NCBI GenBank assembly: GCA_951406725.2
Contig: OX597833.1
Coordinates: 20,088,001 to 20,152,000 of the forward strand
Reading direction: 5' to 3'
Length of the DNA stretch: 64,000 nucleotides
DNA from: Octopus vulgaris
Taxonomy: Eukaryota
Made by a program: the position numbers and the translations under genes. Below the pieces are notes generated by a model, which saw nothing but the letters and a program-made list of their open reading frames with translations, searched no databases and was not told the origin of the DNA. This document shows, one piece after another, positions 25,474-30,390 of the stretch. The first letter of the stretch is position 1, and each line of letters starts with the position of its first letter.

Positions 25474-25798
25474 TTCCAATGATAAACCATCACATGCATG
25501 GTGAACAGGGAGAACATTTTTAACTAAGTCATCATTTTGATTCTCATTCCTCACCAGGAATATGATGGTTTATTATTATGAAAGGTAGATACGTAGATAG
25601 CAAGAGAAAGAGAGAGAGAAAGAAAGAATGAGAAAAAGAGATATTATATTGTGCAAACTAAATATCTTGAATTCTGAAGTAGTAGTTTCTTTTTAATCAA
25701 TAAAATAGTTATATAAATTTCATATTTTAAGAATGTAGCTAGAGATCTATGTAGATATAGAACTATAGAACAATAATCTAAAAAAAACACATTGCTAA

Positions 25799-26187
25799 TC
25801 TCTATATATATAAAGTTGAAGTTGTCTGTGTATGGCAGGTTTGGTAGTCTTCAACTAACACTATCTCCTCTGAGACCCTGCAGCGCAAGTTGACCAAAAT
25901 TGAGAGTATGATAGAAGAAGGCTTGCTCTCCCTTCCATAGAAGAAAAAATTCAAATCGGACCATAAGACCAAAAGTTATTTACATCAAAAAGGTGCTTTT
26001 TTTTCTATGAAAATCCCTATTTTTTATGACTTTTTTAATGCTGTGTTGCCATTTTTCGGTGTATTTCAACCAGAAAAATGTTCACTTAAAGAGAATAACA
26101 AGTGCATAATGCAAAATTTTTACTTTTCAAAAATTCCAATTCTAAAGGGTCGAAACAAACCCGAGCAACACCAGGCGATACTGCTAG
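25799..26187 (+). mobile_element. Non-autonomous Helitron
   Basis: A|TCTCTATATATATAAAG 5' end; 3' hairpin remnant CCCGAGCAACACCAGG followed by CGATACTG-CTAG|T. Confidence 0.85.
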
Positions 26188-26775
26188 TAGTTATAAAACT
26201 TTCATATTTTAAGACTTTAGCTAGAGATCTATGTAGATATAGAACAATGATATAAAAAATACATTCCTAATTTTAAGTAAAAATATTCATCAACGTATGG
26301 CAATTAGTTACAGTCTAATGATTGCGAATGACACTAGTCAACAAGTAAGAACATGTAATCCTTAATACAGATAATTTCTTTTTATGTTAAGCCATTATTA
26401 CTTTTTAATGGGCCATTATTATGTTAATACCAATACAATAACAAAAGACTAGCTAGTAAGAAACCTCTATATGGTTGCCAGACCTGTAAGAAATAGCTAC
26501 AAAATCACTCTCAAATCATTAACGTGTCTGAAAAAAGAAAAGACATCCCATGCATGTGTGTACACACACACGAATACACTATGCATTTATCTAGAAAAAA
26601 ATTGTGTTAGGGCTTGAGTGAATGTCTTTGAACATAGAATTGCTACCCTGTATGCAAATATATGTATACATACACATATACAAACATGTGTACTTACATA
26701 CAGAAAGAGACAGAGAGCTGACCTGGGACTAAAACAGCAACATAAAGAAATTACAAAACTATATTTTATCTCTTA

Positions 26776-27314
26776 CTAGCAGTATCGCCCGGCGTTGCTC
26801 GGGTTTGTAAGGGAAATAACTATATAAGCATTTTTAGAGAGTTACTTCCCTTATATAATAGCGAAAAAATGCATTAAAATGGAAAAAAAACGATGGTAAA
26901 TTTTTTTTTAAATCGTAGACTCATGTAGACGCTTTCTTAGCCATTTCTGTTTTGGTGTCTTCAAGCCATGAAGTCGTTGTTCTAAAAGAACGCTGGTCTC
27001 CTTGACAACGCATTACGACGTTGATTTCCTTACACTCCCTTCCCCACAGGTGCAGGTGTGAGCGTGGACGCCAACTCCGCCGCCATCGACACACGAAAAA
27101 TTATGCATTAAAATGGAATAAAAAAATGATGTTAAATTATTTTTTAAAATCGTAGACTCATCGTAGACGCGCGCTAATACTCAGACGGGCTCAATATGAA
27201 TCACGACTATAAGCTACCCGAATTAGGTTAAACTGCACCGCAAAATGTGGGAGTAGTTAGGAATCTAAATCGAAGGGGACAGACACTCACACAACTACAG
27301 TTTTTATATATAGA
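26776..27314 (-). mobile_element. Short non-autonomous Helitron module (3' module of the inner element)
   Basis: Minus strand A|TCTATATATAAAAAC...CCCGAGCAACGCCGGGCGATACTGCTAG|T; homologous to 29995-30390. Confidence 0.85.
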
Positions 27315-27324
27315 TATACATAGC

Positions 27325-27925
27325 GCAGTAGTGGTGAGATGTGACAGCAAAGAAAAGCATACATTCACTCTCTGCATGCAATTAGACTCGGAAAGTTCAT
27401 GAGGAACCCATTGACCCAATTTGCTGACTTTTCCGATAGCACACAGGTCTCAATGAATGGTTGAATGACCAAATCCAAGCTTCTCTGCTAGTTCCTCAAC
27501 AGTTACGATGAGATTTTGTTCCACCAGGGTTTTCAGGATGTCCTTGTCGAGTTCTACAGATCTTTCAGGATGAGGCTCGTCTTCTAGGCTGTAGTTTATG
27601 GCTCGGAATTTCTGGAACCACCATTGACACTGCCTTACGCTTATTGTCCAATCCCCATATACTGCATTAATATTTCTTGTACTTTCCGTTGCGTTGTTGT
27701 CTTTATTGAACTCATAAAGCAAAATATGCCAAATATGCTCCTTTGTTACTTCCAACATAGCTTTGAAAAAAATAGCTGTTAAAATCGAAATGCACTCTTC
27801 AAAACTTGCACTATGAATAAGGACAAGATAAAATTACTACCTGCTTTTATAGCAAGTTAATATAAGTAGTTTATCCCATTCCCCTCTGACTTTTAGTTCA
27901 AGCTGTTGAAAAAACCGCATTATTA
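27325..27925 (-). pseudogene. Mariner transposase N-terminal half (HTH domain plus WVPHEL), truncated
   Basis: KEHIWHILLYEF..NATESTRNINAVYG..WFQKFR..SLEDEP, then GQWVPHELS; TIR remnant AAAAAACCGCATTATT near 27910-25. Confidence 0.85.
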
Positions 27926-28177
27926 TATATATATACATACATACATACATACATATACACACACACTCTCTCTCTCACACACATGCACACATTTATATTC
28001 TGTTATTCTTTTATATGTTTCAGCCTTGAGGTTGTGGCCATGCTGGATCATGTGTGTGTGTGTGTGTGTCTATCTGTCTGTCTGTCTGTATGTATATATG
28101 TATATGTATGTGTGTGAACAATAATATTTTCAACAGATGTGTTGCAAATGTATCTGATTGTTCTCAAGCTTCAATAC

Positions 28178-28293
28178 TGTGTGTGTGTGTATGTGTGTGT
28201 GTGTGTATGTATGTATGTATATGTATGTATGTATGTATGTGTGTATGTATGTATGTGTGTATGTATGTATGTATGTGTGTATGTATGTATGTA

Positions 28294-28348
<55 letters not shown>

Positions 28349-28362
28349 ATGTATGTATGTAT
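28178..28362. repeat. (TATG)n/(TG)n compound microsatellite
   Basis: Direct inspection. Confidence 0.95.
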
Positions 28363-29216
28363 GAGTGTATGTTTACTTTATTACTAACACAAGCCACTAC
28401 GGTTATTTAGTGTAAAGTCTTCCTCAAATCACTATCTCTGGCTATTTACTCTCTTTCAAGAACATTTTCACTCACACTTATGTGTTAGCTTCCCATACAT
28501 TTTACTCATGGATCTATCAGCGTGATAGAGAGAAACAAATATTACATCTAGTTTCACTTTATTCGTTGCCCACTGTGTGTGTGCGTTTGCGTGTGGTGTA
28601 AACCAGACTAAGAAAAGCATTTGACACACACACCAGAATGTGAGTTTTCTGTAAATTTTGCTTAATTGGAGTTTAAATTTTAAAAACTGACCTGGCATGA
28701 CGTGATGCATTGTACTCTTAAAAATGATAGGTAAATTGTAATTGAAGAAATCCTATATTGTAGATTTGTATAACTCCCAAAGGGAGGCAGATAAAATCTG
28801 CCTTTTATAATAAGAGATTATAAAAGGCAGATTTTATCTGCCTCCCTTTGGGAGTTATACAAATCTACAATATAGGATTTTTTCAATTACAATTTACCTA
28901 TCATTTTTAAGAGTACAATGCATCGCGTCATGCCAGGTCCAGTTTTTAAAATTTAAACTCCAATTAAGCAAAATTTACAGAAAACTCACATTCTGGTGTG
29001 TGTGTCAAATGTTTTTCTTAATGTGGTTTACACCACACGCAAACGCACACATACACAAAGGGAGCGAATTGTTTCACTGACGCTATCACCCTTCTCCTCC
29101 TTTGTCTTTGCAAGTTGGCAGCTATTAAAGTGAAAACAGTGAATCCGACAGCGATTAAGAACACGAATTAGCACCTGAATGGAGTGAAAATTTAAAAACT
29201 GTTTCTTTCGGTGATT

Positions 29217-29460
29217 TTTCTGAAGAAACTGCACCAAGCCACAGACTTTCCCAGAAGAGAAAAGCCTTACACTATTTCTATTTACTTTTTCGAATGAGCC
29301 CATTTAAAATCATTACGGCAGAAACGAAACGTTACGCTAAATGTAAACAAAACGAAAGAAACGATAGTTTGTTATTTCCCACAACCTTAAATGAAATTAA
29401 GGCCTATTTTGCCATAAATATTATTATGGGTATCAGAAAGTTACCCAGAATAACAAATTC
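29217..29460 (+). pseudogene. piggyBac (PGBD/DDE_Tnp_1_7-like) transposase fragment
   Basis: FSEETAP..ALHYFYLLF..FKIITAETKRYA..FPTTLNEIKAYFAINIIMGIRKLPRI resembles the piggyBac ETNRYA..T..EIKA...I.MG..KLP region. Confidence 0.75.
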
Positions 29461-29665
29461 TATCGTAAAATTTTGTTGTATACCCAATTGAATATTAGCT
29501 AATAACCCATTTTCTATAGCGATGTTTGAACAAAATTTTAATAATTTTACAGAAAGTTACCCAGAATAACAAATTCTATCGTAAAATTTTGTTGTATACC
29601 CAATTGAATATTAGCTAATAACCCATTTTCTATAGCGATGTTTGAACAAAATTTTAATAATTTTA
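29434..29665. repeat. Perfect 116 bp tandem duplication
   Basis: CAGAAAGTTACCCAG...AATAATTTTA at 29434-29549 and 29550-29665. Confidence 0.95.
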
Positions 29666-29994
29666 TATATTGTTGAATTTACTTGTATCTACCTGCAATT
29701 AGAGTCACTTTGTGACAAAAATTATAGTATAGAATTGGTTGAGGACATTTCATTAAATTATCTTCCAAAAATCACATTAATATATTGATAAATAAAAAAG
29801 TTATAGTTGTTTAATGAAACCAGACTAAATTTATGATTACGTTAGAAATTAATTGAAACACAGAAATATAGTAACAAAAGGATTAAGAAAAACCAAAAAA
29901 TATTTTATTCTTTATAAATGTTGTATTCAAAATAACATTTTCTTTTAAGAATGCGTATATAACAAAGTATGTGTATATAACTACGTGGCTTATA

Positions 29995-30390
29995 TCTTTA
30001 TATATAAGAGTGAAGTTGTGTGTCTGTCTCCTACGATTTAGATTCCTAACTACTCCCACATTTTGCGGTGCAGTGTAACCAAAACCGGGTATCTTATAGT
30101 CGTGATTCATATCGAGCCCTTCTGGGTATTAGCGCGCATCTACGATGAGTCTACGATTTAAAAAAATTTACCATCATATTTTTCCATTTTAATGCATTTT
30201 TTCGCTATTATATAAGGGAAGTAACTCTCTAAAAATATCTATGATGTGTCAACGATTTAAAAAGAAATTTACCTTAATTTTTTTTCCATTTTTTATGCAT
30301 TTTTTTCCTATTTTTTGGCTATAACTCTCTAAAAATGCTTATATAGTTATTTCCCTTACAAACCCGAGCAACGCCGGGCGATACTGCTAG
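29995..30390 (+). mobile_element. Short non-autonomous Helitron module
   Basis: A|TCTTTATATATAAG ... hairpin ... CTAG|T. Confidence 0.85.

Follow-up and report, generated by a model that had tools for sequence, protein, structure and literature searches.

How can the first seven nucleotides of a transposable element come to lie 2 kb away from the rest of it? The question is raised by positions 26769-30390 of a 64,000-nucleotide stretch of the Octopus vulgaris genome (contig OX597833.1, positions 20,088,001 to 20,152,000, assembly GCA_951406725.2), hereafter the window, for which a reading of the sequence alone had proposed that one Helitron was inserted head-to-head into the first 7 nt of a sister. 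Letter for letter, the arrangement is as that reading described it. The plus-strand arm resumes at 28818, which is base 8 of the family start, reading TTATAAAAGGCAG, and the missing heptamer TCTCTTA is found at 26769-26775 (plus strand), between a host A (26768) and the CTAG (26776-26779) that forms the 3' end of the minus-strand element, whose own start is at 28817, reading TCTCTTATTATAAAAGGCAG. The inner break is an A|T after base 7 of the sister, with no target duplication, and the outer Helitron itself sits in an A|T (26768|30391), also without duplication. Excising 26776-28817 gives back the standard start of the family, the first 20 nt of which occur in 2,969 exact copies (genome-wide counts refer to the whole 2.8-Gb assembly, G000, in which the window lies on contig C20). 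The nested pair (26769-30390, plus strand) is thus made of an outer element of 1,580 bp (26769-26775 plus 28818-30390) and an inner copy at +7 of 2,042 bp (26776-28817, minus strand, TC...CTAG). The pair consists of two non-autonomous Helitrons: the outer one came first, and its opposite strand, at the A|T that follows base 7, later received a sister belonging to a different subtype. The locus is a real, canonical Helitron1 nest, and it gives a view of a measurable self-targeting habit.

The same split was found at other loci. A gapped pattern returned 62 rows, corresponding to 40 distinct head-to-head loci within 30 nt, 10 of which were at +7, and a tighter genome pattern returned 12 rows, all at +7 on the opposite strand and none at +10; same-strand insertions at +7 or +10 were absent from the genome pattern search. 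A 13th locus (L171) was found from its far junction. Twelve of the 13 loci, the window included, carry a full inner element with the displaced heptamer at its far end, while at the remaining one (L081; G000:C13, near 26268687) only a 14-nt stub, an inverted piece of the left end, separates the heptamer from the body; the insertion may have aborted, a later deletion may have removed the rest, or the stub may stem from a template switch. Flanks and subtype pairings vary among the +7 loci, and the inner copies carry different deletions. Because the flanks differ and the inner and outer subtypes vary, we regard these loci as separate events. Two further TCTCTTA|CTAG matches (L172 and L173), which lacked an outer body, were discarded as ordinary host sites fitting the motif. 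Beside another +7 pair (L061, 1-3900; G000:C1, near 156912000), an inverted duplication repeats the heptamer junction, by either palindrome-driven rearrangement or assembly error.

Both partners also exist apart from each other. Our sample, in which clustered loci are overrepresented, comprised 208 left-end modules in fetched stretches. In 167 cases a right end was within reach, and these fell into six main subtypes, that of the inner element having 48 members and that of the outer 17. Besides the window, the sample held 16 outer-type copies, the nearest of which has an intact start and differs by only 0.8%, compared to 3.4% for the other outer-type +7 locus compared, and 47 inner-type copies, the nearest 0.86% different. 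These comparisons bear on the possibility that a single nested event was copied as a composite, or that the split reflects a chance match, an inversion or an assembly error. Three loci do share the same outer and inner subtypes (the window, L065 and L066), L061 has its local inverted duplication, and raw reads from three other runs gave no confirmation of the locus, since 0-61 reads fell on the stretch, contigs were swamped by repeat copies, and no bridging or empty-site reads were found; this last point counts against our own reading of the window. However, the window arms are nearer to solo copies than to L065 and L066, subtypes, inner deletions and flanks vary from locus to locus, and neither error nor inversion would put exactly 7 nt at a CTAG|T boundary twelve times. 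We consider copying or artifact the least probable of the explanations discussed here, and the sequence-only reading, which had named chance and inversion as what might undo it, holds in this respect, and those of its proposed checks that are covered here all favored it.

The elements were then assigned to a class. Starts with TC and ends with CTAG, in agreement with CTRR (26776-26779 on the minus strand and 30387-30390), an A before 95% of 65 starts (the rest being CTAG or TTAG junctions) and a T after 99% of 74 ends are the features of canonical Helitron1 elements. A 16-nt 3' hairpin ends 12 nt before the end, within the 10-15 nt expected of this class; at -4.5 kcal/mol it is weak compared to shuffled sequences (z -0.6), but it is kept in the autonomous ends. 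Helitron2/Helentron elements, as defined in the available part of PMC5148889 by T|T insertion, a T-run start and subterminal inverted repeats at both ends, were ruled out by the A|T target and the TC start. A genome search with PF14214 gave 150 scored matches, and 11 of 20 fetched loci had the same left-end module (77-97% identity). These autonomous RepHel elements of about 7 kb have a TC start, a hairpin and CTAG end, PF14214 and PIF1 domains (in a single frame at L225), and HUH and two-tyrosine motifs, thus providing a partner with the same ends. The inner left-end module (28574-28817, minus strand) is 97.8% identical over 276 nt to the left end of the RepHel element L227, and the outer one (28818-29055, plus strand, less its first 7 nt) is 96.2% identical to L227 and 97% to the inner module. 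Both window elements are multi-copy, non-autonomous derivatives of the 7-kb Helitron. The genome also has at least one further RepHel family (L231-L234), in which the open frames are 1,549-1,744 amino acids long and a related right end is combined with another left end; it is possibly the partner of the mini-Helitrons described below.

Is the head-to-head nest representative of how the family inserts next to itself? The arrangement seen in the window recurs but is a minor class, since landing tail-to-head on base 0 of a sister is about nine times commoner. Genome-wide, we counted 349 tail-to-head matches (about 0.6 by uniform chance) and 40 head-to-head loci (0.03 by chance), compared to 11 tail-to-tail loci (2-3 by chance) among at least 26,715 right ends, which are about eight times as numerous as left ends. 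The first 100 tail-to-head rows, sorted by hand, included 54 direct junctions on short starts (2 nt shorter than the long, standard start), 14 on long starts, 2 other direct junctions and 30 with a spacer, 10 of these in one array. At a direct CTAG|TC junction the upstream copy must have come second, since starts follow A in all other cases.

The identity of the neighbours was informative. Subtypes differed in 29 of 36 complete tail-to-head pairs (one of which, L179, counts the same junction twice via a duplicated module), and the 7 same-subtype pairs differed in length and module sequence. Among head-to-head pairs, subtypes differed in 26 of 37, one with an unassigned arm; the pattern used here missed five minus-oriented or mutated +7 loci (L063, L068, L069, L081 and L082), which were covered by other comparisons. 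Neighbours are mostly of different subtypes and are therefore not concatemers but arrived in trans. Tandem Helitron arrays are commonly ascribed to rolling-circle replication in the sections available of PMC5876387 and PMC11934779, and events in cis, whether rolling-circle concatemers, replication fold-back or re-insertion beside the own donor, could have produced two near-identical head-to-head pairs (L062 and L073, 0.2-0.3% apart), the L081 stub, if it is a template switch, and one regular array of ten units on C2. At the window locus such an origin is refuted by arms of two subtypes lying head-to-head; for the family, the mixed subtypes of 29 of 36 tail-to-head and most head-to-head neighbours make it very improbable, and Helraiser, in the part of PMC4778049 available, showed no local hopping. 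The array itself (G000:C2:206160147-206179830), in which ten tail-to-head junctions recur regularly every 2,182 bp or so, (TA)n spacer included, is a true tandem amplification. At L175, L180, L189, L195 and L203, three or four copies belonging to different subtypes follow one another in trains with CTAG|TC junctions; these trains, most of which have (TA)n flanks, appear to grow at the left end. Copies of the autonomous RepHel type were also hit at their left ends (L226, 570-605; L237, 105-140; L223, 1854-2309), two tail-to-head and one head-to-head.

What, then, marks these positions as targets? As target the family uses A^T-N5-6-(A/T)TAA or ATATA, and the start of its own elements is spaced similarly. 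Flanks of right ends showed T, followed by (A/T)TAA from position 7 or 8, at 27 of 68 sites, compared to 3.5% of background A|T sites; for the family alone the figure was 18 of 49 flanks, or 37 of 49 when ATATA was counted. When the long left end was scored at each A|T between 0 and +47 in 61 copies, a fit was found only at +7 on the opposite strand (34/61) and at 0 on the opposite strand (12/61). Read on the opposite strand, +7 is A^T-AAGAG-AT plus the host flank, so that the spacing is satisfied if this flank contributes AA or A. No fit and no hits were seen at +7 on the same strand or at +10 on either strand. In line with this, the host flank was TAA at 6 of 12 hit loci compared to 5 of 61 (p 0.0017) and TAAA at 5 of 12 compared to 1 of 61 (p 0.0003). 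The sequence-only reading had supposed that an AT-rich 5' end draws the insertions: self-targeting was borne out, but since other A|T sites of the same left end are not hit, AT-richness is not the draw, and a spaced motif plus position takes its place.

A start shorter by 2 nt brings ATAA to position 8, in register. Such short starts made up 17 of the first 100 start rows, and a sister's CTAG directly preceded 5 of these 17, compared to 2 of about 63 for long starts; of 17 other short starts, 16 came after (TA)4 or more. The short start arises repeatedly. A short-start subfamily was rejected: on four subtype trees holding 8, 12, 9 and 9 short rows, changes of label numbered 8, 10, 7 and 5, respectively (counts made with no shuffled control). 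Insertion at +2 (C|T) of long starts was likewise discarded as the source of CTAG|short-start junctions, since no doubled TC precedes the upstream unit in L174-L210 and short starts also occur alone. Small internal duplications or deletions alter the ATAA spacing in left-end variants at L192, L197, L235, L277 and L288, and some of these variants are hit at the inner A|T.

Would such a target sequence by itself account for the excess at left ends? Generic motif sites are hit by the family at about 0.4-3 per 10,000, a rate based on the motif density of the window and 0.86 Mb of fetched DNA rather than of the genome, whereas the rate is about 0.8% at in-register +7 sites (13 hits among roughly 1,650) and reaches about 29% at short starts. 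Left ends are thus hit 100-1000 times more than generic motif sites, right ends hardly at all, and the hitters are unrelated sisters, indicating that the motif is insufficient for the left-end excess. These rates are among the reasons why we think it unlikely that sequence preference alone, in the form of an extended motif, a liking for (TA)n and permissive chromatin, with no role for a protein bound to the resident, produces the pattern. That explanation does predict which A|T near the left end is hit and the bias of the flanks, left ends resemble the motif by nature, and the in-register short start is hit about ten times more than the long one. In barley, too, the Helitron target is asymmetric, with AAA 8 bp downstream of the A-T, the same spacing of an A-rich motif 3' of A|T, although in the part of PMC5738225 available the motif is linked neither to the element's own left end nor to self-insertion. 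However, right ends share the chromatin and (TA)n tracts of left ends and yet gave only the 11 tail-to-tail loci, the out-of-register long start is still hit at base 0, and none of 49 family copies directly precedes a mini-Helitron start, although mini-Helitrons are far commoner.

We therefore turn to the resident element itself. Throughout the family, the likely reason why insertions accumulate at left ends is that the transposase takes the left end of a sister as its target. RepHel would bind a resident left end and open or nick it, and the incoming circle would be joined either at the resident's own nick site, giving base-0, same-strand, tail-to-head junctions, or at the only in-register A|T on the exposed opposite strand, giving the +7 head-to-head nests. 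The left end is expected to offer such a nick site because HUH enzymes cut single strands and because this is where RepHel binds and nicks. The wider proposition, that Helitron transposases home to the left ends of sisters, the surface that positions the donor nick also capturing targets, so that every left end already in place offers docking at a defined base and strand, namely, base 0 of its own strand and +7 of the opposite one, is one we put forward tentatively, at somewhat less than even confidence.

Guidance by nucleic acid rather than protein is another possibility. IS608 selects its targets using transposon DNA, and the end sequence of an incoming Helitron might similarly pair with a resident left end and guide strand transfer. 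In favor of this, the left end folds into a stable hairpin (bases 15-33, z -2.9), and like lands on like: the upstream unit began with the same module at 48 of 53 direct junctions onto a family left end, and at mini-Helitron starts (254 direct junctions) a mini-Helitron was upstream in 29 of 30. Age would account equally well for this pairing of like with like, as standalone mini-Helitrons are older (nearest-neighbor identity of about 94.5%, compared to 98.8%), and for this reason it was also set aside as proof of sequence-specific homing. Moreover, most insertions are at unrelated host sites carrying the motif, and no pairing scheme was found. We consider base pairing improbable.

Several points weigh against homing by RepHel to sister left ends. 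Besides the local basis of the generic hit rate and the confounding of like-with-like by age, half of the +7 loci have an ATATA, ATATG or ATACA flank, which is not enriched (TATA at 4 of 12 hit loci compared to 26 of 61). Hits at base 0 of the long start (14 among the first 100 tail-to-head rows) occur even though the spacing fits in 0 of 61 copies, and the motif leaves this class unexplained. A longer target motif could absorb part of the left-end excess, and that excess may or may not extend to the in-register sites deeper in the module (+53 on the same strand, +153 and +163 on the opposite one). The near-identical pairs L062 and L073 are what cis re-insertion or gene conversion would give. 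Finally, the evidence consists of old insertions in one assembly, shaped by selection and age.

The individual components of this behavior have precedents. Self-insertion and multiple 5' ends are described for FoHeli of Fusarium oxysporum (PMC5148889, PMC13342296) and for maize (PMC3288121), as far as the available portions of these papers go. As in the octopus family, FoHeli copies are found inserted within the 5' end of sisters or immediately before it, nesting in opposite orientation has been proposed, and composites arise; however, FoHeli is Helitron2-like and is represented there by single cases or a model figure, with no fixed base, strand bias or rate, whereas the 13 octopus loci share both base and strand. 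Dissimilar Helitrons adjoin head-to-tail in maize (PMC2267711, one pair) and in Myotis (PMC4778049), where, as here, CTAG|TC junctions of different elements are read as consecutive insertions at the A|T that the host A forms with the resident's first T. In the accessible text the maize example is one case with its order unresolved, while the octopus genome offers hundreds of junctions, mixed-subtype arrays, a 2-nt register effect and a second site on the opposite strand. Maize Helitrons also insert near other Helitrons (Yang and Bennetzen 2009, as cited in PMC12477314), which, in the excerpt at hand, is a regional statement, in contrast to the base-exact, left-end-specific pattern found here. 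Helraiser and Helibat share with our elements the TC...CTAG ends, the 3' hairpin, an A|T target without duplication and an AT-rich 3' flank, which Helraiser favors, and have gained new 3' ends from neighboring Helitrons (PMC4778049, PMC5876387); the available parts of these papers describe no self-targeting hot spot, and the de novo Helraiser data come from cells without resident sisters beyond the donors. A fixed-base, strand-specific left-end hot spot, or an asymmetric target tied to the element's own start, was not found in the partly accessible literature surveyed, which covers few subscription journals, and the portions seen of PMC13286980, PMC12001565 and PMC13282606 held nothing further on targeting. 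The components are already known, and Fig. S4 of PMC4778049, on abutting Helitrons, may bear on the novelty of the base-resolved, strand-specific pattern.

The papers cited do not settle target choice, clustering or the status of tandem copies as concatemers, and the octopus family offers base-resolved counts on them with built-in controls, namely, strand, offset, the 2-nt start variant and right ends. A +7 hit strips the TC start from the body of the resident, which would likely be immobilized by it, a possible self-limiting effect. If homing is true, mixed-subtype trains would grow copy by copy at the left end, most "tandem arrays" could be explained without rolling-circle concatemers, and Helitron vectors might be directed to a landing pad by means of this habit.

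Insertion at base 0 also places new left ends upstream of old right ends and is thereby a route to composites, which brings us to how the two window elements are built. As the sequence-only reading had noted, they combine a common 5' module, different cargo and a mini-Helitron as 3' terminator, and to this it can be added that the left end comes from the autonomous RepHel element and the right end from a separate, older mini-Helitron family. The two elements end alike, with the same hairpin and CTAG. The mini-Helitron of the inner one (26776-27314, minus strand) has its own A|TC start at 27314 and its hairpin at 26788-26803, and similar mini-Helitrons stand alone elsewhere; that of the outer one (29995-30390, plus strand) also has an A|TC start, with the hairpin at 30363-30378 and CTAG followed by a host T. 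In general, the match of non-autonomous subtypes to RepHel elements covers the first 240-550 nt and, at the other end, no more than the last 28 nt; mini-Helitrons, each with its own A|TC start retained, make up the final 400-550 nt. Among 30 right ends taken in genome order, 2 were composite and 28 were not (27 matched mini-Helitrons and one was unmatched). The composites are thus chimeras of a RepHel left end and the right end of older mini-Helitrons. The subtypes may have arisen when a left-end fragment read through its cargo to a pre-existing mini-Helitron terminator. End bypass, which the sequence-only reading had put forward and which is demonstrated for Helraiser in the part of PMC4778049 available, is the likely route, although insertion of a mini-Helitron into a deleted derivative would give the same structure.

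The cargo of both elements is transposon debris and microsatellite. The inner element carries an N-terminal fragment of a mariner transposase (27603-27743 within frame 27450-27833, minus strand; Pfam HTH_48, E 5e-20), as well as microsatellites and a 56-nt piece of a host repeat (27995-28050) at 27920-28375, which other inner-type copies carry too. The outer element carries a transposase fragment on the plus strand (29264-29452 within frame 29159-29491; Pfam DDE_Tnp_1_7, E 2e-7), a family that we take to be of the piggyBac type, and two exact 116-bp tandem units (29434-29665, plus strand), whose copy number differs among outer-type copies. A third mini-Helitron, of an older type, lies in an A|T at 25799-26187 (plus strand), 580 bp from the nested pair, between near-duplicate host segments of 61-93 nt (25706-25789 and 26188-26263).

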